A DNA stretch of 64,000 bases, taken from positions 32,001-96,000 of the IMG/VR virus record IMGVR_UViG_3300025598_000024. One strand, written 5' to 3'. Shown here piece by piece: positions 2,390 to 35,800 of this stretch; the first letter of the stretch is position 1, and each line of letters opens with the position of its first letter. The DNA comes from a virus. The notes under the pieces are model-generated. The model saw nothing but the letters and a program-made list of their open reading frames with translations. It was not told where the DNA came from and searched no databases. Made by a program: the position numbers and the translations under genes.

Positions 2390-2561
2390 CTTGCTTCACC
2401 TTTCTAGTCAGTCCTTCAAGAGACCAAACAGGGTCTGCAATGATCTTGAGATTTTTGTTCTCATAGTCAACCATGAATGTCTTGTCAGCAATCCTGACAC
2501 CAGCCAGCTCATCCGGCCAGTCTTCGACACTGATGTTAATTTCTACGCCCTCTTCTTCCAC
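2358..2561 (-). CDS. hypothetical protein
   Basis: ORF track; tiling. Confidence 0.5.
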   Translation of the reverse strand: MEEEGVEINISVEDWPDELAGVRIADKTFMVDYENKNLKIIADPVWSLEGLTRKVKQDGSQLSFWED

Positions 2562-2563
2562 AA

Positions 2564-2668
2564 TTAATCCTTATCAATCTCTCCGCAATGCTTGCAGTGG
2601 TCTTCTCCAAGTATATACCGTTTTCCACAGGTTGCGCAACGGTATTCAACAGGATTTTCTTCTACCAT
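2564..2668 (-). CDS. tiny Zn-ribbon protein (34 aa)
   Basis: Manual: MVEENPVEYRCATCGKRYILGEDHCKHCGEIDKD. Confidence 0.45.
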   Translation of the reverse strand: MVEENPVEYRCATCGKRYILGEDHCKHCGEIDKD

Positions 2669-2799
2669 TCTACACCAAATATTTTCTTACCCAGGTTAAT
2701 GTATACACCACGAGATCCAAAGATAGTTCTGTCATTAATGAACTCAAGACCGAACATGTAGCTATCCCGTGTTTCTCTTAACAGATTGATGGTAATCAT
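2662..2799 (-). CDS. small hypothetical protein (45 aa)
   Basis: Manual: MITINLLRETRDSYMFGLEF...; ATGA overlap. Confidence 0.45.
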   Translation of the reverse strand: MITINLLRETRDSYMFGLEFINDRTIFGSRGVYINLGKKIFGVEW

Positions 2800-3095
2800 A
2801 GCACGTCCGTAACACAAATACCCGAAACATAGTTTACCAAGATCGGCTTGGGGATCGCTCTGCCTTGTGGGTCAGCTCGCAAGATGAACTCAGTCTTTCC
2901 ATGCATCTGCTTGCTCGTAGTCTGAACATGACCGTTGGAATACCGGTACCAGGTGACCAGCTTTCCTGCATGACAGGACCGGACTCCATCATTAACCACA
3001 CGTGCTGGTGAACTAGCGCCCACACTGGATGCTGACAATAACATAGCAATTACTGTAACAATAATCTTCTTCATGACATCATCTTTCTCTTCCAT
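2796..3095 (-). CDS. putative secreted protein
   Basis: MKKIIVTVIAMLLSASSVGA signal-peptide-like segment (true start probably this second Met). Confidence 0.55.
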   Translation of the reverse strand: MEEKDDVMKKIIVTVIAMLLSASSVGASSPARVVNDGVRSCHAGKLVTWYRYSNGHVQTTSKQMHGKTEFILRADPQGRAIPKPILVNYVSGICVTDVL

Positions 3096-3265
3096 ACTTC
3101 CAGGTCAAGTCCAACAAACAACAGGCCAATCTGCAGACCAAAATGCCTGCGGCTGATGTGCAACTTCGCACCGAGAGTCAATGAGGTTAAGCTAGCCCAG
3201 AAAGTAAAGTCACTTGACCACTTGTTGTGCTGTGTGTACTTGCCCCACTCTAGTGGCTTTGCCAT
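3071..3265 (-). CDS. hypothetical protein
   Basis: Start at MAKPLEW, right after recA stop. Confidence 0.45.
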   Translation of the reverse strand: MAKPLEWGKYTQHNKWSSDFTFWASLTSLTLGAKLHISRRHFGLQIGLLFVGLDLEVWKRKMMS

Positions 3266-3266
3266 A

Positions 3267-4382
3267 TCATACCTCCGGGTCGTGGATGTCATCCGTATCG
3301 GCTGTAAGCGGCCTGCCGAAGAAACTGTCTGCGGTATCCGCTTCAACAATAGTATTGCCACGCTTGGTAGCTGTAATGATCTCCGCTTCGAACTCTTCAG
3401 TGCGTCCGCTATTCCATACCAGCTCAAAGAAACTGTCACGGCCCTGAGCTCTCAGGTCTTTCCAGCTGAACCATGATCCCTGACGCTGAACAACTCCCAG
3501 CAGGATACCCATCCTGGCAAGATCTCTACGGGTATCAACGCCTGGGTGATCCAGGAAGACACATGGCTGGTTGTAGAAGTCTGTCCAGCCCTCACGGAAT
3601 GGTGGGCCGTAGCTGTTCTTCACAGTCTTCATCACAACAGGGAAACCAACCTGAGTGTTCTCACCGTTGATCTTGTCAAAGTACTTGTCACTGCCAGGGC
3701 GAAGGTAGATGCGCACACTCATGGCATGCTTGACAGCGTGACCACCAGGGGTCATGGGTCTGTTGTATCCATCCATGTCAGCACGCAACTGGTTAAGATA
3801 GAAACAGGTGACACCGTACAGGTTGGCCAGCGGAGCAACGGTCTGAACGTTACGCTTCATCACTGCAGCGTTGCCACCAACTCGGTCACCCTTATCGGTC
3901 AGCTGTTGCATGCTGTGCTTGGTGGCTGCTGCACCAGTGCTATCCCATACGATTGAACAGATCTCTTTGCTCTTGATCAGGCTAACCATCATGTCAGTTC
4001 CTGTCTCAGCATCCGGTGGCTGTACAACAATAATGTCCTTATCGATTCTCAGCCCCAGCTTCTCTGCCCACTCAGGGTTGAATCGGTGCTCAAGATCGAT
4101 ATAAGCTACCATCTTCTCTCCACCGTAGTAGTCGTAGCAGTCTTTAAGAGCCAAAAGCCCAAAGCTACTCTTGCCACTGTGCTCCTTGCCAAAGAACTCA
4201 ATAAGCTTCCCCTCTGGCCAGCCACCGATAGCCAGCAGGTGTGCCAGCGAAGGTGTAAAGCATGGGATGGCAGTGATTCGCTCCAGCTGATCACCGCGCA
4301 GAACCACTGGCTTGTTGCTGCCCTCAGGAGTGAACTTGTTCAGGTCCTTGATCAGCTTATCGATTGCTTCTTGCTTACCCAT
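3267..4382 (-). CDS. recA: RecA recombinase
   Basis: GGWPEG..IEFFGKEHSGKS Walker A, YIDLEH, IVWDS, NQLR, TPGGHAVK. Confidence 0.95.
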   Translation of the reverse strand: MGKQEAIDKLIKDLNKFTPEGSNKPVVLRGDQLERITAIPCFTPSLAHLLAIGGWPEGKLIEFFGKEHSGKSSFGLLALKDCYDYYGGEKMVAYIDLEHRFNPEWAEKLGLRIDKDIIVVQPPDAETGTDMMVSLIKSKEICSIVWDSTGAAATKHSMQQLTDKGDRVGGNAAVMKRNVQTVAPLANLYGVTCFYLNQLRADMDGYNRPMTPGGHAVKHAMSVRIYLRPGSDKYFDKINGENTQVGFPVVMKTVKNSYGPPFREGWTDFYNQPCVFLDHPGVDTRRDLARMGILLGVVQRQGSWFSWKDLRAQGRDSFFELVWNSGRTEEFEAEIITATKRGNTIVEADTADSFFGRPLTADTDDIHDPEV

Positions 4383-17784: not shown

Positions 17785-18070
17785 CCGTCACTGGTGCCAG
17801 GTCACTGTCGGGGTTGCGTTCGACGGGAGCTGGTTCGCTAGCAACAGCTGGCTGCTGCTCACTTATAAGTTCTTTGACAACGCTGGCGAACTGTGGCCCA
17901 ACAACGTCATCCCACATGGCAGAGAACTGGTCTTGCAAAGCATCGACTACGATCTCACCATCAACCAGCTTGATCTCACAGCCAACCTCTGGCTTGATCC
18001 AGTCCCACTCACCTTTGGAGTTGCGCACCTGAAGAGTTGCGCCAATACTTACATTAAGCTTCAGTTCCAT
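17768..18070 (-). CDS. hypothetical protein (MELKLNVSIG..., 100 aa)
   Basis: Start at 18070 with GAGGA RBS; truncated paralog at 20420..20524. Confidence 0.7.
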   Translation of the reverse strand: MELKLNVSIGATLQVRNSKGEWDWIKPEVGCEIKLVDGEIVVDALQDQFSAMWDDVVGPQFASVVKELISEQQPAVASEPAPVERNPDSDLAPVTDDYEY

Positions 18071-18437
18071 TTTCTTCCTCTGTTCCTTTGACGTAGTTGA
18101 TGAGGCTAAGGGCATACAGTGCCCTGTCGATGATATCACCATCAGGGGTAGGACAGTGCTCAAGGTATCTATCCAACAGTTCTGAGAGTGAACTCTCCAG
18201 CTTTTGGATGCCTGCCTCATAGAAAACGTATTCGTTAACAGTAACTATCTGCTGGTCTTCTGGTAGTTCAGAAAAATCTTCTGGCTCTTCCAGAAGAAAT
18301 TCTTTTTGGTTCTTGCTCATCTTTCTGATCTTGTTGAATAAATAGATGCCAGCAATGCTTTTGCCAATGCCTTCCATCTTGCCCTTCACGTCAGCTGGCT
18401 TGTAATCCATGTCCAGCTCATACTTGTATGGTTCCAT
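18054..18437 (-). CDS. hypothetical protein
   Basis: AAGGAG RBS. Confidence 0.65.
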   Translation of the reverse strand: MEPYKYELDMDYKPADVKGKMEGIGKSIAGIYLFNKIRKMSKNQKEFLLEEPEDFSELPEDQQIVTVNEYVFYEAGIQKLESSLSELLDRYLEHCPTPDGDIIDRALYALSLINYVKGTEEENGTEA

Positions 18438-18462
18438 GTTGCTCCTTACTTGTTGTTAATGC

Positions 18463-18552
18463 TGGCGGAAGCAGTGGGATTCGAACCCACGGAGCGCTTG
18501 CACACTCAACGGTTTAGCAAACCGTCCCATTAGGCCACTCAGGCATGCTTCC
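18463..18552 (-). tRNA. tRNA-Ser(GCT), encoded CCA
   Basis: GGAAGCA/TGCTTCC acceptor, ACGGT-TTGCTAA-ACCGT, long variable arm. Confidence 0.93.
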
Positions 18553-18557
18553 AGACT

Positions 18558-18974
18558 TTAGTCGCAGCAGCTGTCCCGCCAGCCACATCCACCACACTTG
18601 TAGTGAGCATGCTCTGGCTTGAGGTCTGAACCACACTGTGGACAGTCCATGAAAACTGCGAGGGGGTTATGCTGCTGCTTGTCCCACTCTACACTACCAC
18701 AGCACCCATCGCAACCGTGCACGCTGGTCTCTTTGAGCTCTGTGATCCTGTACTCATCTGGATCAGGATGACCAATACCATGAGTGCAGATGCGTTCCAT
18801 GATACCACGGTCAGTTCTCCAGTGCTGTGGAAAAGACCGCATGGAATGATCAGACATGTTGTGAATGGTGCACTGTTGCCCATTGCACTGATCGCTGTCA
18901 TGAACCATCAAGTAGACATCAGAGTTTTCTAACTGAACACGTTCCATACTAATCCTTTTTACTGCAGTGGACAT
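18558..18974 (-). CDS. His/Cys-rich protein with C-terminal Zn ribbon
   Basis: CTIHN.SDH.MR.F..ERICTHGIGHPDPD..HGCDGCC plus CPQC..HYKC..C...DSCC; true start may be MERVQ. Confidence 0.65.
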   Translation of the reverse strand: MSTAVKRISMERVQLENSDVYLMVHDSDQCNGQQCTIHNMSDHSMRSFPQHWRTDRGIMERICTHGIGHPDPDEYRITELKETSVHGCDGCCGSVEWDKQQHNPLAVFMDCPQCGSDLKPEHAHYKCGGCGWRDSCCD

Positions 18975-19034
18975 TGAGGGACTCGAACCCCCGACCCTCT
19001 GGATGTAAGCCAGATGCTCTAACCAACTGAGCTA
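18966..19034. repeat. 69-bp perfect direct repeat, copy 1
   Basis: Identical to 20544..20612. Confidence 0.95.
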
Positions 19035-19041
19035 CCAAGGC
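18968..19041 (-). pseudogene. chimeric tRNA-Val(TAC) with unpaired acceptor stem
   Basis: Identical to the 20546 tRNA except the 5' acceptor strand GCCTTGG, which cannot pair with AATGTCC. Confidence 0.8.
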
Positions 19042-19051
19042 CTATAGTTCT

Positions 19052-19080
19052 AGTATAGTGGTTACCTTGTTCGAGTGCAA
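19052..19080 (-). promoter_or_regulatory. SigA-type promoter upstream of chimeric tRNA-Val
   Basis: TTGCAC-17 nt-TATACT. Confidence 0.75.
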
Positions 19081-19083
19081 CTC

Positions 19084-19143
19084 TTAGCAAGAGTAGAGAT
19101 TGACCACTATGCCATTGACCTTAAGGATTTCCACGGCCTTGTT
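19084..19143 (-). pseudogene. 3' remnant of a homolog of 22040..22279
   Basis: NKAVEILKVNGIVVNLYSC* vs YEAIEILRQNGISDNIYDT. Confidence 0.55.
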
Positions 19144-19154
19144 TGATGAAGCCG

Positions 19155-20423
19155 TTAAATCGACAGAATGCCACCTTGCCTCGGGCCATCCTTGATTGCG
19201 ATCAAGTTGGCGTTCACGTAGCTTATGTCGTGTTCACGGTGCCAATCATTCGGGAAGAACGTAATCAGGCGACTTACCTGGAATCGGCACGTGATCTGGG
19301 GCACGAAGTTGGCGTAGTTGCGATCCGTGAAGTACCAAAAGCTGTTCTCGTTGTAGAACGCTACGTGGGTGGGGTCTTGGAATGCACCACGACCGTCCGT
19401 GCTGGGAGTCAAGGAGAGCAGGATGCCACCGTGTGCGAGCACTCGGTAAAGCTCGTTGAACAACGTCACCTTGTCGGGAATGTGCTCGAGGAAGTCACGA
19501 GCTCGAATGACGCCGACCGAGTTATCAGGCAGCGGGATGCCCTTCGTCACATCAGCCACGATGTCGACACCCGGCCGCTCGTACTGATCCACACCGACGT
19601 ACTGGGGGTGCTTGTTGTGGGCCGCACCGAGGTCGAGGGCGAGCAGGCCCTCACGCTTCGCCCACGCCAGCGCATTGCCTTCGACGTAGGAGTCATACAG
19701 GGCAACCGTGTCGGTTTGGATCGCCTGGTTGATCGTGGGGTCAGACTGGGTATTCCTCGAGTGGACCCGCTGGAGGTAGAGGCACTGGTCGATGAGGTGG
19801 AACGCCGTGTGCTGGAACAGCCGGCACATCAGGTCTTGGTCGTCAAGCACCGTCAGCTCAGGGTTGTACCCACCAGCTGCGTCGTAGGTGGTCTTGCGAA
19901 AGGCTCGGAGGTGGTTCGGTGCGTACCAGATGTAACTAACGTTTTGTGGATACGGCAACATTGAGTTGCACTGCAACACTGATTGGCCGTTCACCTCGAC
20001 TTCGGTGTACTCCCAACCGTGGGCCGGGTTGAAACGCTGATCGTTTCGTGAACCATCTTCATTAATCTGTGCACATTGGCTATAGACGAAACCAACCGAT
20101 GGGTTGGCATCAAAAGCAGCGACCACTTCAGCCAAGGCTTCTTGAGCCAACAAGTCATCGTGGTCGAGTTCCAACAAGAACTCACCACGAGTTTGCTCGC
20201 AGGCATAACGCTTTGCTGCTCCAACACCATGCAGATCGTTGTTCTGCAACACTCGAACCCGAGGATCAGCAACCGGCGGACGCCAGTTGGCTCCATTGTT
20301 CATCACAACAACCCACTCCCAATCGGAGAAGGTCTGAGCTACGAGGCTGTCAAAACATTCATTCAGGAACGTTGGACGGTGGCTCGGCGTGAAGACGCTG
20401 ATGCGCGGTTCGGTGGGGCTCAC
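19155..20423 (-). CDS. GT2 glycosyltransferase fused to class I SAM methyltransferase-like domain
   Basis: ISVFTPS, ELDHDD, DDQDL; LDLGA, DFLEHI, AFQDPTH. Visibly GC-richer than flanks. Confidence 0.85.
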   Translation of the reverse strand: MSPTEPRISVFTPSHRPTFLNECFDSLVAQTFSDWEWVVVMNNGANWRPPVADPRVRVLQNNDLHGVGAAKRYACEQTRGEFLLELDHDDLLAQEALAEVVAAFDANPSVGFVYSQCAQINEDGSRNDQRFNPAHGWEYTEVEVNGQSVLQCNSMLPYPQNVSYIWYAPNHLRAFRKTTYDAAGGYNPELTVLDDQDLMCRLFQHTAFHLIDQCLYLQRVHSRNTQSDPTINQAIQTDTVALYDSYVEGNALAWAKREGLLALDLGAAHNKHPQYVGVDQYERPGVDIVADVTKGIPLPDNSVGVIRARDFLEHIPDKVTLFNELYRVLAHGGILLSLTPSTDGRGAFQDPTHVAFYNENSFWYFTDRNYANFVPQITCRFQVSRLITFFPNDWHREHDISYVNANLIAIKDGPRQGGILSI

Positions 20424-20524
20424 TTCTTCGGACGCAGAATGGCCGGCTTAATCCAGTCCCACTCTCCTTTGGCATTCTTGACCTGGAGAGTTGCTCCTAT
20501 ACTGACGCTGAGTTTAATTTCCAT
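20420..20524 (-). pseudogene. truncated paralog of 17768..18070 (34 aa)
   Basis: MEIKLSVSIGATLQVKNAKGEWDWIKP|AILRPKK*; its TGA overlaps the GTG of the GT gene. Confidence 0.8.
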
Positions 20525-20543
20525 GTTTTCCTTTCTTACTTGG

Positions 20544-20612
20544 AGTGGACATTGAGGGACTCGAACCCCCGACCCTCTGGATGTAAGCCAGATGCTCTAA
20601 CCAACTGAGCTA
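20544..20612. repeat. 69-bp perfect direct repeat, copy 2
   Basis: Identical to 18966..19034. Confidence 0.95.
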
Positions 20613-20619
20613 AATGTCC
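20546..20619 (-). tRNA. tRNA-Val(TAC)
   Basis: GGACATT/AATGTCC acceptor, TCTGG-CTTACAT-CCAGA. Confidence 0.92.
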
Positions 20620-20628
20620 TAAAAATTG

Positions 20629-20787
20629 CTACTCTTCAGGTGGAGAAAAGAGATACAATTCTTCTGTGTCATAAGCCTGTAAATCATCTGGGAATGATGA
20701 AAACTCTACTACTGCTTTACCATCAGAAGTAAAGCCAATAATCTTTCCAATTTCGATTGCTACGTAATCACCAGCTTTTAATGTCAT
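20629..20787 (-). CDS. small hypothetical protein (52 aa)
   Basis: Manual: MTLKAGDYVAIEIGKIIGF... Confidence 0.5.
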   Translation of the reverse strand: MTLKAGDYVAIEIGKIIGFTSDGKAVVEFSSFPDDLQAYDTEELYLFSPPEE

Positions 20788-20802
20788 TTGTTTGCCTTTC
20801 TT

Positions 20803-21027
20803 TTAGTTGACGTACGTGATCTTACCACGTTCTGCATCAGTGTCAAACTCTAGTGGGATCTCTGTGAGCAGGTCCCAGATCTGCACTGCATCGCATGGCC
20901 ATGAGATATTGTACACGCCGTTTGGCCCTGCGCAACCACGGCACAGGCTAACGCTAGTGCCAGCGCCTTGTGCCTGGATCATTGGTGAGTGCTTCATTAC
21001 CAGTTCGTATGGTGCATAGTTGTTCAT
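20803..21027 (-). CDS. hypothetical protein (H..CxxC..WPC)
   Basis: ATGA-coupled to thyX. Confidence 0.55.
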   Translation of the reverse strand: MNNYAPYELVMKHSPMIQAQGAGTSVSLCRGCAGPNGVYNISWPCDAVQIWDLLTEIPLEFDTDAERGKITYVN

Positions 21028-21701
21028 GGTGCGACCCTACCATTCTCGTTCCATGCCTCGTATGTTACCGGCATGGCTTGTTTAAAAAACTCTTCGACAG
21101 CACGAGCATAGTCCTGAATCTCCTGTTGTGCATGCCGCTCTGCTCTAAGGCTCAAGAACGCCATCAATGACCTGGCGTTCACTGTCCAGATCCATTCAGT
21201 GTATGCGTTCACTGGCAGTACAATGCGTGCCAGCTCTGGTGCTACCCCACATGCTAGCAGAGTTTTGTAGCCCTGGAATGCACTGCTTGACGCTGAGTCA
21301 ATCAGCCCTGCGATAGCAGGTTCATTCATGACTTCGTACTCGTAGGCTCCTGGCTTGCCAACACGCTTGCGGATGTGATCACGGTCAGGAACATAGTAGC
21401 CCATGTCGATCTCGGTGTAACGACCGCTCACCTCATTGAATGAGTTGCCAATACGATGACGGATCCATTCCCTGGCCACAAAGATTGGCAGGCGAACACA
21501 GAACTTGAAGTAGGTGTGTTCGAATGGTGAACCATGCCGGTTACGCATAAGGTAACCGATCAGTTTGTCATCGCCAGGTTCCATCTGTTCATGGCTGGTA
21601 TGGAAAGACACGCGTGCAGCGTTAACCACGTCCAGGTCACTGGCACTGCTGTCTAACAGTGTGACGAACCCATCGTTATGTACTTTGATTGTATTTTCCA
21701 T
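21024..21701 (-). CDS. thyX: flavin-dependent thymidylate synthase
   Basis: NAARVS, HGSPFEH, REWIRHR..SFNEVSGRY, NARSL..FL.LR, AQ.EI. Confidence 0.95.
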   Translation of the reverse strand: MENTIKVHNDGFVTLLDSSASDLDVVNAARVSFHTSHEQMEPGDDKLIGYLMRNRHGSPFEHTYFKFCVRLPIFVAREWIRHRIGNSFNEVSGRYTEIDMGYYVPDRDHIRKRVGKPGAYEYEVMNEPAIAGLIDSASSSAFQGYKTLLACGVAPELARIVLPVNAYTEWIWTVNARSLMAFLSLRAERHAQQEIQDYARAVEEFFKQAMPVTYEAWNENGRVAP

Positions 21702-21777
21702 GGAGCCGAGAGTGGGATTCGAACCCACGACATCTTTATTACAAGTAAAGCACTCTGACCAACTGAGCTATCTCGGC
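21701..21777 (-). tRNA. tRNA-Thr(TGT), encoded CCA
   Basis: GCCGAGA/TCTCGGC, CTTTA-CTTGTAA-TAAAG. Confidence 0.93.
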
Positions 21778-21782
21778 GGGTG

Positions 21783-21855
21783 TACCCCTGGCACGAATCG
21801 AACGCGCAACCTAGTGGGTAGAAACCACTTGCTCTATCCATTGAGCTACAGGGGC
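21783..21855 (-). tRNA. tRNA-Arg(TCT)
   Basis: GCCCCTG/CAGGGGT, AGTGG-TTTCTAC-CCACT. Confidence 0.88.
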
Positions 21856-21860
21856 ATATT

Positions 21861-22037
21861 CTAGTGGGTGATGTCATGCTCCTTGTCGAACTGCTTGTGA
21901 ATCTTCTGCCAGATCCGTTTACGACCCAGGTAGTAACCCAGTGTGAACACAATGATCTCTTCTATCACACTCACAATGCTTTCCGCAATCAGATGATTGG
22001 GATCGGTGAGAATGCTCCACCAGGTCTCGTGATGCAT
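21861..22037 (-). CDS. small membrane protein (58 aa)
   Basis: Manual: MHHETWWSILTDPNHLIAE..IIVFTLGYYLGRKR.. Confidence 0.55.
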   Translation of the reverse strand: MHHETWWSILTDPNHLIAESIVSVIEEIIVFTLGYYLGRKRIWQKIHKQFDKEHDITH

Positions 22038-22039
22038 GG

Positions 22040-22279
22040 CTAACTCCCTGTGTCGTAGATGTTATCGCTGATCCCGTTCTGCCGCAAGATCTCGATTGCC
22101 TCATAGTAGTACGGGTTGCTCATCACACTAGCAGCCGGTGCTGCTGTCTTCAACACACTCTTCACCCACATCTTGTTAGCGTCATAGTTTACGAATGCAT
22201 CGATCAGCTTGGGCTGTACCGGTACCTTGGCCAGTTCCAGGATGATCCTTGCTGCCCATCGTATATCTTTAGTTGTCAT
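22040..22279 (-). CDS. hypothetical protein
   Basis: GGAGG RBS. Confidence 0.6.
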   Translation of the reverse strand: MTTKDIRWAARIILELAKVPVQPKLIDAFVNYDANKMWVKSVLKTAAPAASVMSNPYYYEAIEILRQNGISDNIYDTGS

Positions 22280-22290
22280 TGTTACCTCCG

Positions 22291-22333
22291 TACCCTGAGG
22301 GGGACTTGAACCCCCACCCCATGGAGTATACCA
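22291..22333 (-). pseudogene. 3' half of a split Leu-type tRNA
   Basis: TGG (end of anticodon stem), variable arm, GGGGG-TTCAAGT-CCCCC, TCAGGGT-A; pairs with GCCCTGA at 22961. Confidence 0.85.
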
Positions 22334-22783
22334 TTATTTTTTCTTGTGTGCTGCTGTTTTCAATGCATGGCAGTTAGGGCACAAAATTTGTAAGTTCTCC
22401 AAAGAATTATCAAAATGATCACTGTTGATATGGTCTAGCTCTAGCGGTGCTGGTTGCCCCAACCATTCTGTTATCCCACAGACCTCACAAATGGCTTCTT
22501 TAATACCCTCCTTGATAAGTTTTAACCTTAACTTCCCAGAATGGATTGGCTGCCTATTAGATAGGTACTCTTCGATATCAACTTTATTCCTGGCTGGTCT
22601 TCCTTTTGTAAAGCTTTTGCCAACAAAATGTGAGTAATCAATACCTGCTTTTACAGCCCTATTTTTTAAATGGGTTTGTGACCCAGTCATTGGTTTTACG
22701 CCTATTTTTCTGCATGTATCAGCCCATGTAGTAGATGAAGCCACTGCATCAGCCAACTGTTGATCTGTATATCTATGTTTCAT
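22334..22783 (-). CDS. HNH homing endonuclease
   Basis: CEVCG..W.GQ..PLELDHIN.D..DN.LENLQILCPNCH; AT-rich. Confidence 0.9.
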   Translation of the reverse strand: MKHRYTDQQLADAVASSTTWADTCRKIGVKPMTGSQTHLKNRAVKAGIDYSHFVGKSFTKGRPARNKVDIEEYLSNRQPIHSGKLRLKLIKEGIKEAICEVCGITEWLGQPAPLELDHINSDHFDNSLENLQILCPNCHALKTAAHKKK

Positions 22784-22837
22784 GTATACTATAACACCAC
22801 GTATACACTTTTACATTGTTTACATTGTTTTATATTG

Positions 22838-22921
22838 TGCCCCCGGTCAGACTCGAACTGACAAGACCTTACGGTCATTACCTCCTAAGGGTAACGTGTT
22901 TACCTATTTCACCACGGGGGC
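22838..22921 (-). tRNA. tRNA-Leu(TAG), nested inside the split tRNA
   Basis: GCCCCCG/CGGGGGC, TTACC-CTTAGGA-GGTAA, long variable arm. Confidence 0.9.
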
Positions 22922-22926
22922 ATATC

Positions 22927-22961
22927 AAACCTGGCGCGTCTGCCTATTCCGCCATCAGGGC
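22927..22961 (-). pseudogene. 5' half of split Leu-type tRNA
   Basis: GCCCTGA-TG-GCGGAATAGGCAGACGC-G-CCAGG-TTT, then break. Confidence 0.85.
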
Positions 22962-22965
22962 TCTG

Positions 22966-23039
22966 TGCCCCAGGTGGGATTCGAACCCACACTACAAGGA
23001 TTTTAAGTCCTCCTCCTCTGCCTGTTGGGATACTAGGGC
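22966..23039 (-). tRNA. tRNA-Leu(TAA), short variable arm (actinobacterial type)
   Basis: GCCCTAG/CTGGGGC, GAGGA-CTTAAAA-TCCTT. Confidence 0.9.
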
Positions 23040-23044
23040 TTCTG

Positions 23045-23126
23045 TGGGCCAGGTAGGATTCGAACCTACGTAGCTTTACGCGGCGGTTTTACAGACCGCT
23101 TCCTTTGGCCGCTCGGACACTGACCC
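23045..23126 (-). tRNA. tRNA-Tyr(GTA)
   Basis: GGGTCAG/CTGGCCC, GCGGT-CTGTAAA-ACCGC. Confidence 0.93.
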
Positions 23127-23137
23127 ATTCTACTGCG

Positions 23138-23211
23138 TCGGAATGACAGGATTCGAACCTGCGACATCTGCGTCCCAAACGCAGCGCTCTACCAAGCTGA
23201 GCTACATTCCG
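23138..23211 (-). tRNA. tRNA-Pro(TGG)
   Basis: CGGAATG/CATTCCG, CTGCG-TTTGGGA-CGCAG. Confidence 0.93.
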
Positions 23212-23221
23212 TATACTGTTG

Positions 23222-23292
23222 TCCTCCTGGAGGGTACCGCCCCCTCTTTTCAGGATTAAAAGTCCCGTACATCACTTTAATGTTTCAGGAGG
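23222..23292 (-). tRNA. non-canonical tRNA-Lys(TTT)
   Basis: CCTCCTG/CAGGAGG; ACAT/ATGT D-stem; CGGGA-CTTTTAA-TCCTG; GAGGG-GGCGGTA-CCCTC (T-loop lacks TTC). Confidence 0.75.
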
Positions 23293-23770
23293 TTAAATAT
23301 TCTTCTATTGATTCTTTCTTTTTTTCATACCATCCTAGTCTGATGTTGCAACTATAGCACAGTAACCCTCTAACGCTACCAGTTTTGTGATCGTGATCAA
23401 CACAAAAGTTTTTACCAGTAGAGCACCTATCGATCTTGCATATTCCACAGCGATGGTTTTGACCCTCTAGCATACTGTAGTAATCAGCAATAGTCAAACC
23501 AAATTTTCTAGTAGCAGATTTTATATTAAAACAATTTCTACAATATGCATTTTTATTGTTATCACCTTTGTAGGCACCACAGTATAAACATGGTTTTGGT
23601 GATGGTACATAACTGGAGTACCTAACTGAATGCTGTGCTCTAGCTGCGCAGCTTTGAGAACAGTATAATCCTATATTCTTTTTTACTTGATAGGCATATC
23701 TTTTATATACATTGCTACAGTCAGTTCTACTGCATATTACTTGCTCTGATGTTCTAGTAGTCATAGTCAC
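23285..23770 (-). CDS. Endonuclease VII-family homing endonuclease
   Basis: KFGLT..DY..ML..Q..RCGIC...FCVDHDHKTG.VRGLLC..CN..LG. Confidence 0.9.
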   Translation of the reverse strand: MTMTTRTSEQVICSRTDCSNVYKRYAYQVKKNIGLYCSQSCAARAQHSVRYSSYVPSPKPCLYCGAYKGDNNKNAYCRNCFNIKSATRKFGLTIADYYSMLEGQNHRCGICKIDRCSTGKNFCVDHDHKTGSVRGLLCYSCNIRLGWYEKKKESIEEYLTS

Positions 23771-23810
23771 TCTCCTGTGGCTACTAGTGCAAGTACAAGT
23801 ATGAATTAAA

Positions 23811-23837
23811 TCACTCTACCAACTGAGTTACAGGGGC
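23811..23837 (-). pseudogene. 5' tRNA fragment (acceptor strand + D-arm)
   Basis: GCCCCTG-TA-ACTC-AGTTGGTA-GAGT-G, then non-tRNA sequence. Confidence 0.75.
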
Positions 23838-24154
23838 ATGTAATCGTACTCCCAATCATCCATGCTACCCAACCTTACCAGATGCATGCAAGGATCGTCA
23901 CCTCTATCCCAGGCCTGCTCTTCAGTGGGATGCACAGGGTACCCATCGTGTGTGTTGCAGAACTGCTCACTACAGTAGCCGTTCTCCACGCCATAGTTCA
24001 ACCACTGCTCAAAGTCCATCCTGGCATCTCGCTGCTCTTGACAGGTGCAGTACCAGTCAAAGTGAATACGGAATGCCTGTCGCCTGCAGTTCAGGCAGTG
24101 CTTGACGCCTTCGCTGTCTGTGTCTACTTCAGTCTTGTGTACCATTTCTACCAA
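23828..24154 (-). CDS. Cys/His-rich hypothetical protein
   Basis: F.QWL.YG..NGYCS..FC.THDG.P...DPC.H.VRL; stop lies in the tRNA fragment. Confidence 0.65.
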   Translation of the reverse strand: MVEMVHKTEVDTDSEGVKHCLNCRRQAFRIHFDWYCTCQEQRDARMDFEQWLNYGVENGYCSEQFCNTHDGYPVHPTEEQAWDRGDDPCMHLVRLGSMDDWEYDYMPL

Positions 24155-24783
24155 CGCCCCGGTTCATAATAGTTAAAAAGAACTGCGATATCATCACAGT
24201 ATATCACGTTCTCTTTGGTTTGATAAGCAATAACCTCATCTATAAATATACCATCACCCGATGGGTGAAGCGGTACCCTGAACTGTTTGAGAATCTTTCC
24301 AGTCAGAAAGATCTGTTCAATACTAACATGATCTCTCCTGGCCGACTCAGGGGTTGCGTTAAGACGTGTCGGAGGGTGAGCGCTCTCTGGTGCATGACCT
24401 TCAGGCAGCCTGTACCCTCTTTCCATTGCTGTGATAATAACGTCAGATGCTTTACCCTGTGACTTGACAAGATTTATTCTGTCTGCTAGGTCTTTGAAAA
24501 ACGTAGGGTCGTATGCATCATCATCATTTAAAAAGCACCAGTACTCATCGTCTTTAACATGATTAGCAATAAACCAATTTAATGACGTGTTGCTACGCGC
24601 CCAAAATTCTGTTGCATCATTGGGGCAACGATACGATATAATCCAGTCCTCATCGAACTGAAGACCAAATCCAAGATCATCATCAACTATTACGTGCCAG
24701 ATAACGTCATGCATACTGAGCATATGTTTTAGAAGAGGTATGTTTTTGAACCTCATCATTGGCGTTACAACATTAAAACGCAT
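24148..24783 (-). CDS. GT2-like glycosyltransferase
   Basis: FNVVTP.MR..N, W.VIVD, YWCFLNDDD, DG.FI. Confidence 0.75.
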   Translation of the reverse strand: MRFNVVTPMMRFKNIPLLKHMLSMHDVIWHVIVDDDLGFGLQFDEDWIISYRCPNDATEFWARSNTSLNWFIANHVKDDEYWCFLNDDDAYDPTFFKDLADRINLVKSQGKASDVIITAMERGYRLPEGHAPESAHPPTRLNATPESARRDHVSIEQIFLTGKILKQFRVPLHPSGDGIFIDEVIAYQTKENVIYCDDIAVLFNYYEPGRW

Positions 24784-26003
24784 CAGTGCCCGATGATCTC
24801 AAACTTTGGGCAAGGCACAATAAACTTGCCACCATCCCGCAAGTAATCCTGTTCACGCGCCACAAATTCATTGATGAAGTGCCATGGTAATACCAGCAGG
24901 TAGTCGGGCTTGGCTGCTCGCATCTCTTCTTCACTGTAGATAGGGATCTCAGTGCCTACCGTCTTCAGGCCAAACTTGTAGTGGCTACGCTCAGCGATAC
25001 CATCAATAAGAGTGTGATCTAGACCAAAGTATTGTAGAAGGGTGTTACCCTTGGTGCTTGCACCATAACCCCAGACGGTCTTGCCCTCAGCTTTTGCCTG
25101 CTTGATAAAGCTATAGGTCTGCTCCTTGAGATCCAGCAAACGCTGATAGAACTCGCTCCATACTTCAGGAGTGTTATACCCCTTTGCTTCTTCATACTCT
25201 AGCAATGAGTTGACACGGTAGTTGCACACATCACGGTATGGTTGAGTACCAAAGCGTGTGATATCAGCTCCACTCTTCATGGCATAAACACGGAAAGAAC
25301 CACCGTTGATATCATTCAGCTGAGTATCTATGATCTGAAAACCGTTCTCATTAAACAGTTTCTTTATCGATGCTAGCGAATGATAGTACAGGTGCTCATG
25401 ACAAATATTATCAAAAGCCATCTGCTCAATCATGAGTGGTGTGTAGCTCATCTGCACAACCAGCAGTCCATCATCATTCATGACGCTGGCAAGGTCCTGT
25501 AGAAATACGTCAGGGTGCTCCAGGTCATAAAACATTGCAATGATAGTAACCACGTCAGCCTTGGTGTGACCAAGGGGCGAGTTGCGATATGCTTCAGCAG
25601 AAAAATAATCCTGAATAATCAGATCAGCATGATGTGAGGACTCTGCCTTGAACGTGTCATCTACCGGATCGATACCAATTCGGGTATATCCACCAGGAAC
25701 AAAGCTGAGCAGGGTGCCATCATTACAAGCGATATCTAGCCACACAGGTGATTCAGGCATCTTGTATGTTGAATGAATAGACTCTACAATGCCCTTAAGC
25801 TCATTAGTCATTGTTGCATTAATGCCAGACCGGTACCAGTAGCGACCATACATAAACTCGCCGGGTGTTACTTCTTCCAGCCGTGCAGCCTTACGTTGTT
25901 CATCAAACACCATCTTTAGACCGACGCGACCAGCACGGTAGTCTTCACCAGGCTTGACGAAGTCTGATACGTACAATTCACCTAGGTCGAATAGTTCTTT
26001 CAT
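24783..26003 (-). CDS. NDP-hexose C-methyltransferase-like protein
   Basis: YWYRSG, LDIACNDGTLL, FDNICHEHLYY, NGGSFR, GYGASTKGNTLLQ, LVLPWHF, FIVPCP. Confidence 0.88.
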   Translation of the reverse strand: MKELFDLGELYVSDFVKPGEDYRAGRVGLKMVFDEQRKAARLEEVTPGEFMYGRYWYRSGINATMTNELKGIVESIHSTYKMPESPVWLDIACNDGTLLSFVPGGYTRIGIDPVDDTFKAESSHHADLIIQDYFSAEAYRNSPLGHTKADVVTIIAMFYDLEHPDVFLQDLASVMNDDGLLVVQMSYTPLMIEQMAFDNICHEHLYYHSLASIKKLFNENGFQIIDTQLNDINGGSFRVYAMKSGADITRFGTQPYRDVCNYRVNSLLEYEEAKGYNTPEVWSEFYQRLLDLKEQTYSFIKQAKAEGKTVWGYGASTKGNTLLQYFGLDHTLIDGIAERSHYKFGLKTVGTEIPIYSEEEMRAAKPDYLLVLPWHFINEFVAREQDYLRDGGKFIVPCPKFEIIGH

Positions 26004-32884: not shown

Positions 32885-35800
32885 TCACATGTTTACGTAC
32901 GACACAGTGGTGTTGGCGACCTGCTCGATGCTGAACCTGGTGGGGTATACCTCTTTGTTCAACAGGAACAACTTCTTGCGGCTGGCTGGCGTGCGGCTGG
33001 ACAGCTCGTTGGTCTTGCTATCACCGATGTAATCGATGTTGGCACTAATGTAGTAGGGGTTGCCAGTGTACCTGGGAACTATGCTCAGGCTGGTAATGAA
33101 CACATTGGGGTCAAGAGCAGTCAGCCTGACCTGGATACCACTGGCTGCTGTGCCAGGTGATGTTGTACTGACAACTGAGTTGATGTTGTTGATGCCAGTT
33201 ATGATTGGCTTCCAGTTGCCGGACCCACTCTGTGTGGTGTACTCGTACCTGACTGGGTGGTAGAATGGTGAAAGCATGCTCATGTACATGATTTCATTCA
33301 CCTTGCTGTCAGTCTGGGATATCCGTGCAGAGAATGACTGGTAGTTGTTTCCCGAATATCCAGGCACCTCAATGTTGATCCAGGTTCCTATCGGAAGCGA
33401 GTTGCTTCTAAACTGCTTGTATGTGATCTCTGTAATGTTGCCAGAGTAGTCTGTACCCATCAAGCTAACACGATAGGTCCCATTGTTAGTTGATGGTAGG
33501 TACACTCTTGCAACAGCGCTGACTCTCATGCTGTTCCGGTCAGATGGGCTGACCCATGCGGTAACAGGTGTTGTGCTAACGCTTAGATCAAACAGGCTGA
33601 ACGGCGAACCAGATCCACTGATTACCATCTGAACAGTGTTGCTGGGGATACTGGATGACCAAATCCCGCCAGTCGCTGTAACAACATTGCTGCCGATACC
33701 AGAGGTCACTGTTGCCACGGTTCCAGTTACGGTTGTACCAGCAATTGGTTGACCTGTGGATGGGTTGATGAATTGTGTATACATTGTCAGGGTTGTATTG
33801 ACCTGAGGAACTCCACTGATCCCAGCGACCTGTATGTTGTTAAGGAAGTAGTAGTTAAGCCCACCACTAGGGACAGCATAGCCACCAAAACCAGCTACTG
33901 CATACGGGCTAGCACCAAACTGATCCATCCAGGCCTGTGTTCCGCTGGGGCTGTACACACCCGGGAGTGTGAATTTGTAAGCGGCTGAGAACTGGCCGCC
34001 ACTAACGCTGATGCCGCTAGAAGTGGCTCCAGACCATACAGTCACTGTTGTGTTACTTATAGTTGTACTGCCGAGAGCTGTCCATGAGCTTGTTCCGTTC
34101 AAGAAGTTGGCATCAAGGTAGTTAACAATATTAGAGCTCAAAGTATACAGTCCGGTCTGCACAGAATAAGAACCGGATACGGTTCCGGACAGTGCAATGA
34201 CATTGCTGGTGCTTCCAAAGTTAGATACCACATTTAATGGATAGGTTATATTAGACCCTGTTAGATTGCTTGTGTCTTTAAGAAGAACCTGATTATCAGG
34301 AAGAAAGCTCTGCCAGTCAGTTGTAAGGCCAGCTATGCTAAATCCTGTGAATTTATCAATGGTAGATACCCAGGGTGTTGTTGCAGTGTCATCAGGGTTC
34401 AGCATGATGTAACTGTTGTTATCCTGACCAGCAAAAGTGTTGTTGTTGTTTCTTGAGATCAAACTACCCAGAGATGGTTGTATGTTGTCATAGGATGTAT
34501 TCTCATAGAAAGCTGCTATATAGTACAACCCTACAAAGTATGCCTGATGCCATGTTTGATTTATTGTAATCTGTGTGTAGTTATGCACACGAGTGTCTGG
34601 GAACTTGCGCTGCAAAAACTGTGTGTATGTTTGATTGTTATATCTTCCATCAGTGCCAATCAGTTTGTAGCTGATGGTAGGATCAATCACCTGAGTTGAG
34701 CTGTTTGGCATTTGATTTGTTGTGCCACCAGTTGTTGAAGAGTTGAGCACACCAATAGCTGGCCAGGATGATGCATCAACACTATTAGCAGCACCAAACA
34801 TTGTAGAATATGTGCTGGTATAGATTGGCTGCTGGTTGTTGTTCGACCCAAAGAACGAATAGGTTTTTGTGTTGCCATCTATGATCGATGACTCTAGGCC
34901 AGTGAAGTACTCTTCTACATCATATGGGAATGCATTGATGGTCTTTGTAACCATATCGAATGGCAGGTCATAGATCTCAGGAACTAGCTGAACAAACTCT
35001 AGCTTGAGATACGTGCATTGCACTGTCGGTATCTCATAGATGCCACTGCGCAGAGAGAAATCTCTTTGTACAGGTGTCCAGGTAAACTGTGATGCATCTG
35101 TTCCAGTATTAGTGGTGTAGTAAAGATTAAATCTGCACCCATCATATACAGGGTTTATGTACAGCCTGTTCAGGGTTGTTATTGTTACACCATCACTAAC
35201 CTGCATGTAGAAGTTTACAATGGCATCACCAACGGGTTGTGGTTCACTCTTCCAGTAAGAGTGGCTATTGTTGTTTAGTGCGTTGCTAAGGCTATAAACC
35301 TTTTCATTGTATGTTTCAATAAAACCAAACTTGTTCTGTACAACAAATGGTTGTGGTACGCCGGATGCTGATACCGGCACATCGCTATAAGACTGTATAT
35401 TAAGCCTTATACTCAAGTTCTTTACACCGATAGAGTACGGTATATCAACAAGAGTATTTGTTAAGGCACTCTGTCGCTGTACTGTTTTCTGTCGAGTGAT
35501 TCTTATCTGGATGTAAGAACCTGACTGAATACTCAGAGTGCTGGTTGCAGCGTACTTTATATTTACCCAATCAGTAGTGGTATTGATGTCCGGACCACCA
35601 GTGATTACGAACGTAGAAGCATCAGAGATTGGGGTGCCATCACTCCATAGCAGTTCTACATAGCAGGGTACGTTAAGAACATTGAAGTTGATTGCATTAA
35701 AGTATGTTGTGTTAGAAACATAGAAATTTAATACAACTGGTGCGCTATTAGGACCACCAAAATCTTGCGATGAGATCCATTCTGTCTGCGTTGCAGGGTT

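Follow-up and report, generated by a model that had tools for sequence, protein, structure and literature searches.

The window analysed here, a stretch of 64,000 nt of DNA from an uncultured phage (IMG/VR record IMGVR_UViG_3300025598_000024, positions 32,001 to 96,000), carries within a cluster of tRNA genes a unit of roughly 590 bp that consists of a leader, a free-standing nuclease gene and a divergent tRNA-Lys(UUU) gene. Comparison with syntenic phages suggests that this unit is a mobile cassette, and that it probably sits where the lineage once had a canonical tRNA-Lys(UUU) gene. The features of the locus are as follows.

23828 to 24154, minus strand: 108-aa ORF of no known function, the left flank common to relatives
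23813 to 23837, minus strand: 5' stub (positions 1-25) of a canonical tRNA gene, most likely a relic of the resident tRNA-Lys(UUU)
23765 to 23812, minus strand: cassette leader, the left end of the putative mobile unit (leader alignment A4)
23285 to 23764, minus strand: free-standing nuclease gene with an Endo VII motif (DHHRN type), 159 aa (PF02945)
23222 to 23292, minus strand: cargo tRNA-Lys(UUU) with a rewired elbow, 71 nt (fold, Rfam, family model R1)
23212 to 23221, minus strand: spacer of 10 nt that bounds the cassette on the right (in cassette-free relatives, a Lys-Pro spacer of 58-64 nt)
23137 to 23211, minus strand: canonical tRNA-Pro(UGG), the right flank common to all syntenic relatives

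The cassette (23222-23812) stands in for everything from position 26 of the broken tRNA gene to a point 10 nt short of tRNA-Pro, and its composition is foreign, with a GC content of 37.1% against 47.9% for the genome. An earlier note on this DNA had described a canonical tRNA fragment that breaks off after the D arm, followed by an Endo VII gene and a full cloverleaf with a UUU anticodon. All three are present in that order; 25 nt of the fragment are certain, and the adjoining GA at 23811-23812 may belong to the tRNA or to the leader of the cassette. The stub retains the 5' strand of the acceptor stem, U8 and A9, and a complete D arm with its GG. The last codons and TAA stop (23828-23830) of the upstream 108-aa ORF overlap it; in the relatives L010-14 and L036, the homologues of this ORF stop 6-18 nt 5' of a canonical tRNA-Lys. 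Pfam and PHROG searches with the upstream ORF returned no match, and a variant of it (P0014) is 97% identical.

Alignment of the leader with those of loci L031 and L033-L036 (A4) revealed a conserved motif, GAT[T/G]TAATTC[A/T]TACT ... TAGTA ..., which has no exact match elsewhere in the window, the sole other match lying at 35119-35133 with two mismatches. The leader holds a GGAG ribosome-binding site 7 nt 5' of the nuclease ATG, and a search of it for a sigma-70-like promoter found none. We took the ATG after GGAG as the start of the nuclease, which gives a protein of 159 aa; the program-made ORF list starts at a GTG at 23770. At the other end of the gene, nucleotides 1-8 of the tRNA (23292-23285) read CC TCC TGA and are also the final bases of the ORF, whose stop codon forms nucleotides 6-8 of the tRNA, just as the earlier note had it in assigning the last codons of the nuclease to the 5' strand of the tRNA.

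We examined what occupies this site in relatives. All five nuclease-free syntenic relatives (L010-12, L014 and L036) have a canonical tRNA-Lys(ttt) at the position of the cassette, in the order upstream-ORF homologue, canonical tRNA-Lys(ttt), 58-64 nt spacer and tRNA-Pro, although the upstream ORF of the empty-site phages is just 59-72% identical to that of the window. A canonical tRNA, perhaps Lys, at the nuclease-free site was what the earlier note had predicted. Among syntenic relatives, the odd tRNA is seen only together with the nuclease (the window, L002, L030 and L035) and the canonical gene only without it; contigs that carry the odd tRNA and lack the nuclease do exist, and none of them is syntenic, so the pattern by which the note would have abandoned its reading did not appear. 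No relative more than 90% identical to the window phage was found with an empty Lys site, and a search of the GenBank phage collection gave nothing closely related to this region.

L035 provides a second filled Lys site. Its Lys locus, readable from inside the nuclease ORF onward, encodes a nuclease 43% identical to that of the window, with its stop 1 nt before a homologous odd tRNA-Lys. The tRNA-Pro that follows 8 nt after this tRNA is identical to the tRNA-Pro of L036, a close relative of L035 in which the Lys gene is canonical. The nuclease tree is poorly resolved and does not group the two Lys-site nucleases (window and L035) together, and it therefore does not show a single origin of the nuclease-plus-Lys unit. 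As a separate marker of such an origin we considered the A12:U23 pair of the D stem that the window and L035 share; it was set aside, the variant being present in at least 118 other viral loci.

A parallel arrangement is found at tRNA-Val, a site that is filled in L033-36 and empty in the window. In L034, nucleotides 1-24 of the old tRNA-Val are followed by a leader and nuclease gene, a new tRNA-Val whose nucleotides 8-10 are the TAG stop codon of the nuclease, and then the final 30 nt of the old tRNA-Val; neither relic differs from the corresponding part of the intact tRNA-Val in the window. The new tRNA-Val of L035 and L036 likewise overlaps the nuclease stop. The stubs differ between loci: that of L035 is shortened and Val-like, L036 has none, and that of L033, a Val stub, runs into the anticodon loop, on a contig that ends before any cargo tRNA could show. 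A downstream tRNA is not universal, since L031/32 and L037 have only a 3' tRNA relic after the nuclease.

The sequence of the stub by itself names no parent. In other IMG/VR phages, tRNA-Thr(UGU) genes match it at 25 of 25 nt and tRNA-Asn(GUU) genes at 24 of 25, which marks it as the genuine 5' part of a tRNA gene rather than a chance resemblance; against the canonical tRNA-Lys of L036 at the same site, which starts GCCCCTA, it scores 23 of 25. As Thr and Asn genes match equally well or better, assignment of a Lys parent rests on synteny and on the like-for-like Val sites, and on these grounds the parent was most likely tRNA-Lys(UUU). Were the stub instead left by a tRNA-Thr or tRNA-Asn gene upstream of an odd tRNA-Lys that was already resident, a gene that the nuclease gene had merely entered or deleted, there would have been no like-for-like replacement. 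Beyond the stub matches themselves, this account can draw on the presence in some of these phages of tRNA-Pro directly after Asn, and on the odd tRNA-Lys being often resident in nuclease-free phage clusters. We nevertheless consider it unlikely: a Lys gene, and not Thr or Asn, stands at the site in every one of the five nuclease-free syntenic relatives, none of which has the odd Lys; the L036 Lys gene falls short of the stub at only two positions; nuclease and odd tRNA-Lys adjoin in L035 as well, even with nucleases as far apart as these two; and stub and cargo share one identity at the Val sites.

The cargo element departs strongly from the canonical tRNA. The minimum-free-energy fold of its 71 nt is a cloverleaf (-27.5 kcal/mol, z -3.05), and in a 106-nt search it matches the Rfam tRNA model RF00005 over model positions 1-71 with 37.3 bits, above the gathering score of 29; a search over 7 kb passed it by on account of its speed filters. 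The bacterial mode of ARAGORN never called it, even with thresholds relaxed to 80%, and the mitochondrial mode reported Lys|Asn (ttt). It has A8 and A9, the D loop UAAAGUG, a 4-nt variable loop, the T loop GGCGGUA, A73 and no encoded CCA; A8, U14, A18, G54, G55 and G58 replace the canonical core bases, of which just G19 and C56 are kept, and the first pair is an unusual C1:G72. The anticodon loop is regular: it reads CUUUUAA, with 7 nt, U33, a purine at 37 and the anticodon UUU, and goes with the discriminator base A73.

Searches for similar genes placed this element in a large family of phage tRNA-Lys. We delimited the family by A8 and A9, a D loop UAA[A/G]GUG, a 4-nt variable loop ending in AA, a T loop R-N-C-R-K-U-A, A73, and an 18:55 combination of G:U or A:G/C, all of which the window copy displays. 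About 100 distinct phage copies were found, usually without any nuclease. In the family alignment (A3), 99.6% of cells are paired, double changes occur at 16 of 21 pairs, a level that none of 500 shuffles reached, and all four stems covary. Over 97 distinct copies, positions 18:55 are A:G in 52, G:U in 41, A:C in 3 and A:U in 1; G:G and G:C do not occur, and 96 copies have C56. This covariation at 18:55, which unlike that at 54:58 is free of bias from the search pattern, suggests that the L shape is kept by other bases than in canonical tRNAs. A perfect covariation at 54:58 in 30 sequences was discarded, because the search pattern for viral copies had fixed those bases; in a larger set most combinations there are A:U or G:G, the exceptions numbering 8. 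With A18:G55 and G54:G58, the window copy shows combinations that are frequent among the 97, and it scores 88.5 bits against family model R1, of whose seed it is itself a member. Elsewhere among phages, a locus with the odd type seldom has another Lys(UUU) gene (113 of 117 have none). ARAGORN misses about half of the family copies, the odd tRNA-Lys is unannotated in both of the complete cyanophage genome records that we checked, and a literature search found no description either of this tRNA-Lys type or of a unit of nuclease plus replacement tRNA.

The rewired-elbow tRNA occurs without a nuclease on well over 100 unrelated phage contigs, which makes it a type of phage tRNA that existed beforehand; the cassette carries it but did not create it. 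The break-and-replace event proposed in the earlier note accordingly has to be divided: a break and replacement at this site is supported by synteny and by the Val parallels, but the odd tRNA is not a product of the cassette, nor does the stub point to Lys specifically.

As judged from its sequence, the cargo tRNA is probably in working order. A cloverleaf at this position might instead be a decaying tRNA copy, or a 3' processing or stability signal of the nuclease mRNA, and the lack of U8, G18, T54, psi55 and an encoded CCA, the rejection by ARAGORN in bacterial mode and the C1:G72 pair could all be read in that way. Such a view seems improbable to us, given that the element keeps every conserved position and covariation rule of a family of some 100 copies and that dead tRNA relics at these loci are soon truncated or lost, as the differences among L033, L035 and L036 show. 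It is, moreover, the only tRNA-Lys found in a search of the whole 105-kb record, and the other tRNAs of the cluster also lack an encoded CCA.

The nuclease most likely belongs with the DHHRN homing endonucleases that bear an Endo VII motif. Its residues 87-159 match Pfam family PF02945 (Endonuclease_7; E 5.9e-19), and PHROG matches are to endonuclease VII families. A Cys-rich N-terminal half precedes a C-terminal catalytic domain (core residues 97-150), in which D123, H124, H126, R132 and N140, together with C106, C109, C136 and C139, are invariant (alignments A1 and A5); these catalytic and zinc residues align to residues 13-71 of T4 Endo VII (1e7d). An AF2 model (pLDDT 83) has T4 Endo VII and Hpy99I as its top fold matches. 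The identical protein (P0001) is present on 23 contigs; a 60%-identical nuclease, P0002, is absent from IMG/VR. All eight loci of this nuclease subfamily lie inside tRNA clusters, as against none of 48 loci with distant Endo VII homologues; no tRNAs were seen near the distant homologues L016, L017 and L052-L099. As in homing endonucleases of this type, the catalytic and zinc residues are complete and the gene is sporadic at sites, here Lys and Val, that are otherwise conserved.

A housekeeping role, as junction resolvase or packaging nuclease in an incidental position, would suit the naming of the PF02945 and PHROG families after the T4 resolvase and the many phages whose Endo VII genes lie away from tRNAs. 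We regard it as very improbable, as only residues 13-71 of the 157 in T4 gp49 align, and the core is C-terminal here, so that the layout of the T4 resolvase, an N-terminal catalytic core with a helical dimerisation domain at the C-terminus, is not reproduced; a C-terminal domain behind a Cys-rich region is instead how F-CphI is described (PMC6083498). The gene, low in GC, is also sporadic in relatives, and always lies in tRNA clusters beside tRNA relics. Finally, group I introns with a nuclease ORF are known from bacterial tRNA genes, and the break in the stub falls cleanly behind the D arm, but a single tRNA gene split by such an intron, whose first exon would be the stub and whose second the 3' portion of the cloverleaf, is scarcely credible when no intron family matched 18000-25000 at E values up to 10, the acceptor strand of the stub pairs with the 3' end at 5 of 7 positions against 7 of 7 for the local 5' strand, the downstream cloverleaf is complete alone and a family member, and stubs vary or are absent in relatives.

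For the mobile cassette that we favour, we propose that in co-infected cells the nuclease would cut the canonical tRNA gene of phages without the cassette, and that repair of the break from a cassette-bearing genome would copy nuclease and tRNA into the site, an intron-less form of homing as for SegB of T4. The cargo gene, with a D arm and T loop unlike those of the canonical gene, would for that reason not be a substrate of the nuclease, and the cargo tRNA would maintain the phage's supply of tRNA-Lys(UUU). On a transcript of both genes, RNase P would be expected to remove the stop codon along with the tRNA of which it is part and to leave a non-stop nuclease mRNA, which could hold nuclease levels low. 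A bolder version, possible though we lean against it, would have the cargo be no random choice but a counter-defence tRNA, its rewired D and T loops making it uncuttable as DNA by a nuclease that recognises canonical tRNA genes and as RNA by host defence nucleases against tRNA-Lys(UUU), for example PrrC or the AriB nuclease of PARIS, and spread among phages by a selfish nuclease; the whole family would then be an escape form of tRNA-Lys, and, given the overlap, one transcript could serve for nuclease translation or for tRNA maturation but not for both.

Homing nucleases usually spare their hosts by means of self-splicing introns or inteins, or by sitting beside their target. The filled and empty alleles at this locus suggest a third way, suited to RNA genes, in which the target tRNA gene is broken and a divergent spare of the same identity is carried along, physically fused to the stop codon of the nuclease. 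The arrangement recurs for Lys and Val within one nuclease subfamily, and an unrelated HNH nuclease appears to do likewise for Leu in the same genome. It offers a testable system, comprising a small nuclease, defined candidate substrates, and tRNA alleles predicted to be immune or sensitive. The rewired-elbow tRNA-Lys(UUU) is in its own right very common in phages, which matters for phage tRNA counts, and may be relevant to defence systems that cut tRNA-Lys.

Among known systems, SegB of phages T4 and T6 is a free-standing GIY-YIG homing endonuclease encoded in a tRNA gene cluster; it cuts within tRNA genes of phages that lack segB, and when it homes, adjacent tRNA genes travel with it and the tRNA region of the rival is excluded (PMC2330249; PMC13096335). 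The cassette resembles it in placing a free-standing nuclease gene, sporadic in relatives, inside a phage tRNA cluster, but its predicted nuclease has the Endo VII, or beta-beta-alpha-Me, fold, and whereas segB lies between intact tRNA genes, the cassette splits its target tRNA gene and carries a replacement of the same identity that overlaps the nuclease stop. F-CphI of cyanophage S-PM2 is presented in its description as the founder of the DHHRN homing endonucleases with an Endo VII motif, with the intron-insertion site of psbA as its target (PMC6083498). By that description the two nucleases are alike in being free-standing, in having the Endo VII motif C-terminal to an N-terminal region, and in the conserved D/H/H/R/N residues; they differ in that F-CphI is directed to psbA, whereas the subfamily described here keeps to tRNA genes and brings a tRNA with it.

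In Aeromonas phage Aeh1, insertion of the homing endonuclease gene mobE splits the protein gene nrdA into working pieces. There too a free-standing nuclease lies inside an essential-type gene, with neither intron nor intein and with function kept; in that case, however, the gene halves still make a working enzyme, whereas the cassette appears to abandon the broken RNA gene and supply a full spare. The HNH/tRNA-Leu module of the window's own genome (22291-22961) likewise combines a free-standing nuclease gene with the relic of a tRNA and an intact tRNA that matches the relic in identity, but is built from another nuclease family (PF01844) and another tRNA; L002 and L030, two near-identical contigs, lack positions 22369-22800 of it. 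For the cargo itself, a possible parallel is found in phage T5, whose tRNA-Lys(UUU) variant escapes the AriB nuclease of PARIS, two changes in the anticodon stem being sufficient (PMC11464382; PMC12409363). Both are phage-encoded tRNA-Lys(UUU) genes that depart from the host-type sequence, in T5 through the anticodon stem and in the cargo tRNA through a rewired D loop, position 8 and T loop.

Within the tRNA cluster of the window, the minus strand carries a canonical tRNA gene that breaks off after its D arm, a nuclease gene and a complete cloverleaf, arranged as follows:

23828-24154, minus strand: 108-aa ORF, matching no family
23813-23837, minus strand: canonical tRNA stub, positions 1-25 (25 nt)
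between stub and nuclease ORF, minus strand: 48-nt leader with GGAG
23285-23764, minus strand: nuclease ORF, 159 aa, with C-terminal Endonuclease_7 (PF02945, E 5.9e-19)
23222-23292, minus strand: 71-nt cloverleaf, anticodon loop CUUUUAA
between cloverleaf and tRNA-Pro, minus strand: 10-nt spacer
23137-23211, minus strand: tRNA-Pro, right neighbour of the cloverleaf

The earlier note had described this succession of tRNA fragment, Endo VII gene and UUU cloverleaf, and had held that the nuclease's 3' end doubles as the tRNA's 5' strand; all three elements are present, and the final codons of the nuclease together with its TGA form the first 8 nt of the cloverleaf. At the other end, U8 A9 A10 of the stub form the TAA stop of the 108-aa ORF. 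The cassette is AT-rich (GC 37.1% vs 47.9% genome-wide), and no second tRNA-Lys was found anywhere in the source IMG/VR virus record (105 kb; completeness estimate 71%).

Using the 108-aa ORF as query, we found 13 IMG/VR loci. L002 and a metagenome contig, L030, are near-identical to the window and carry the same nuclease and cloverleaf. At loci L010-12 and L014, the upstream ORF is 61-63% identical, the nuclease is absent, and the ORF is followed by 6 nt, a canonical tRNA-Lys(ttt), a 64-nt spacer and tRNA-Pro; a further locus, L036, is laid out likewise, the gap measuring 18 nt and the spacer 58 nt. Relatives lacking the Endo VII gene therefore do carry the canonical tRNA, a tRNA-Lys, that the earlier note had anticipated at this site. 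The window stub matches the L036 tRNA-Lys at 23 of 25 positions; because tRNA-Thr(UGU) of unrelated phages has a 5' part identical to it, and tRNA-Asn(GUU) of such phages agrees with it at 24/25, its parent is assigned by position, not by sequence. At the Lys site, locus L035 has another nuclease gene, its second, which shares the architecture of the window's gene at 43% identity and whose TAA stops 1 nt short of a cloverleaf homologous to the window's (58/71 identical), with tRNA-Pro 8 nt further; the L035 sequence starts inside this ORF, which places the upstream end of the cassette outside the locus. L035 and L036 have identical tRNA-Pro genes and nearly identical nucleases at a second, tRNA-Val site.

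A profile built from the window nuclease and the three proteins nearest to it in the database (60, 52 and 49% identical) recovered eight metagenome loci, all eight in tRNA clusters; none of 48 loci holding remoter Endo VII homologues contained a tRNA. In L034, nt 1-24 of a tRNA-Val run into the conserved leader and nuclease, after which come a new tRNA-Val, 3 nt, and the 3'-terminal 30 nt of the old gene; both relics are identical to the intact tRNA-Val of the window. The new tRNA-Val is canonical yet different from the old one, and its nt 8-10 are the TAG of the nuclease. L034 is thus a clean scar. The same nuclease and tRNA-Val occupy this site in L035, where the stub is shortened, and in L036, where it is absent; in L033 the Val stub extends into the anticodon loop. 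L031/32 and L037 have nothing but a 3' tRNA relic, made up of T arm and acceptor strand, after the nuclease (regions L031:2872-3530 and L037:3001-3570). An intact compact tRNA-Thr lies immediately upstream of the leader in L031, so the spare tRNA may sit on the opposite side in this layout. The leader, GAT[T/G]TAATTC[A/T]TACT ... TAGTA ... GGAG ... ATG, is common to the window, L031 and L033-36, and begins directly after the stubs.

The window has two tRNA-Val copies, flanking a 422-aa ORF:

18969-19042: tRNA-Val(tac), first copy, with a foreign 5' acceptor strand (Rfam alignment gap, nt 3-7)
20545-20619: tRNA-Val(tac), second copy

The intact window tRNA-Val is the empty form of the site that the Endo VII cassette fills in L033-36. 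The Lys site is filled and the Val site empty in the window, the reverse holds in L036, and both are filled in L035; homing elements are expected to come and go among genomes in just this way.

Other modules of the cluster also vary, among them:

22369-22800, minus strand: HNH gene (PF01844), a presence/absence difference

L002 and L030, otherwise 97-99.9% identical, lack exactly these 432 bp, and the junction shows a 4-nt overlap; the piece resembling a tRNA 3' part that lies after the HNH stop (about 22290-22325) is kept with and without the gene. A 211-aa ORF adjoining the 108-aa ORF (24145-24781) is replaced in near-identical L002 by a different segment of ~1.6 kb (2400-4001), a further exchanged module at the tRNA-cluster edge.

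The cloverleaf is the minimum-free-energy fold of 23222-23292 (-27.5 kcal/mol, z -3.05). It scores 37.3 bits across the whole Rfam tRNA model (gathering score 29) when a short stretch is searched; in a 7-kb search it was dropped by the filters. ARAGORN reports it in mitochondrial mode but finds no tRNA there in bacterial mode, relaxed thresholds included, because its core bases are non-canonical: A8, U14, A18 and T loop GGCGGUA, as compared to U8, A14, G18 and T-psi-C-R-A.

Pattern scans place this tRNA in a family with a rewired elbow. The odd T arm occurs at 14 further IMG/VR loci. Most are large tRNA clusters, the contigs reach 260 kb, and two of the loci lack any other called tRNA; at none of the 14 does a nuclease adjoin the odd tRNA. 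A D-arm variant pattern added at least 118 loci, 69 of them distinct, among which the closest Endo VII homologue lies 2 kb from the tRNA and no syntenic relatives of the window phage were found. Prokaryote genomes yielded 22 metagenome-bin contigs (L103-L124), nearly all with the tRNA in or beside tRNA arrays; the bins span many phyla, with 13 contigs assigned to Verrucomicrobiota, one of them a 4.26-Mb chromosome (OY970277.1), and one bin labelled Methanosarcinales. Two cyanophage GenBank records leave the odd tRNA unannotated. ARAGORN detects 57 of 117 copies, and the odd tRNA is the sole Lys(ttt) gene in 113 of 117 loci. The cargo tRNA is an old, common phage type.

Across 13 copies, 99.6% of cells in the family cloverleaf are paired and 16 of 21 pairs show two-sided changes, levels that no shuffle or slid register of the alignment approached. 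Among 97 distinct copies, A8 never varies, including where the pattern did not specify it; 96 copies have C56, and 54:58 is mostly A:U (59) or G:G (30). These figures should not be read as probabilities, because the copies are related and the patterns dictated some bases (U14 and G19 in all scans; 54, 56 and 58 in one). No scan constrained the 18:55 association: G:U occurs in 41 copies and A:G/C/U in 56, with G:G and G:C never seen. The window copy conforms to all of these rules. The simplest reading of these sequences is that the tRNA keeps its L shape through an elbow built from other bases, and so is a working tRNA-Lys(UUU). Two related cloverleaves were also observed. One, missed by ARAGORN (L040:3136-3206; anticodon loop CUUUGAC, Gln, UUG; odd T loop GGCAGUA), scores 56 bits against the odd-Lys model, so tRNA-Lys is not the only type with the rewired T loop. 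The other, a tRNA-Lys(CUU) at L039:7083-7153, combines the odd A8 A9 and D arm (GCUU-UAAGGUG-AAGC) with a near-canonical T loop (UUCAAUA), indicating that the D-arm and T-loop changes are separable.

In the nuclease, D123, H124, H126, R132 and N140 are invariant and align to the T4 Endo VII catalytic core (residues 13-71), and four invariant cysteines align to its zinc site. The top fold matches of an AlphaFold model (pLDDT 83) are T4 Endo VII and Hpy99I, an enzyme of the beta-beta-alpha-Me type. The N-terminal half, for which the model gave no clear structural match, has eight further cysteines, six invariant across the subfamily alignment. Lysine is encoded by AAA in 11 of 14 codons of the gene, as compared to 70% AAG in the phage's long ORFs; AAA is also the codon read by the cargo tRNA.

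Direct observation covers layout, scars, filled and empty sites, family memberships and covariation; beyond these, we propose that the nuclease would cut canonical tRNA-Lys genes of cassette-free relatives, and that repair would copy in both nuclease and tRNA. The cargo's divergent D arm and T loop may keep the nuclease from cutting the genome that encodes it; SegB offers an analogy, as its recognition site takes in the conserved T-loop motif (PMC2330249). The cargo would compensate for the lost tRNA-Lys gene, such that deleting the nuclease 3' end would remove the phage's only tRNA-Lys. More speculatively, an RNase P cut at tRNA nt 1 would strip the stop codon from the nuclease mRNA, and the rewired tRNA might resist host nucleases targeting tRNA-Lys(UUU) (PMC11464382; PMC12409363).

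F-CphI, founder of the DHHRN homing family, is reported to carry its catalytic domain C-terminally, after a distinct N-terminal region (PMC6083498), a layout that the window nuclease shares. T4 SegB, free-standing in a tRNA cluster, cuts the tRNA genes of rival phages and carries adjacent tRNA genes along (PMC2330249; PMC13096335). On the strength of this layout and precedent, we read the window enzyme as a homing-type nuclease whose predicted targets are canonical tRNA genes. Homing enzymes with the Endo VII motif, variant tRNA-Lys genes of phages and nucleases located among phage tRNA genes are all known singly. Our literature search returned no account of a free-standing nuclease gene that interrupts the tRNA gene it targets and supplies, joined to its own stop codon, a spare tRNA of the same identity, an arrangement that here recurs for two tRNA identities; nor did it return any treatment of the rewired-elbow tRNA-Lys as a family.
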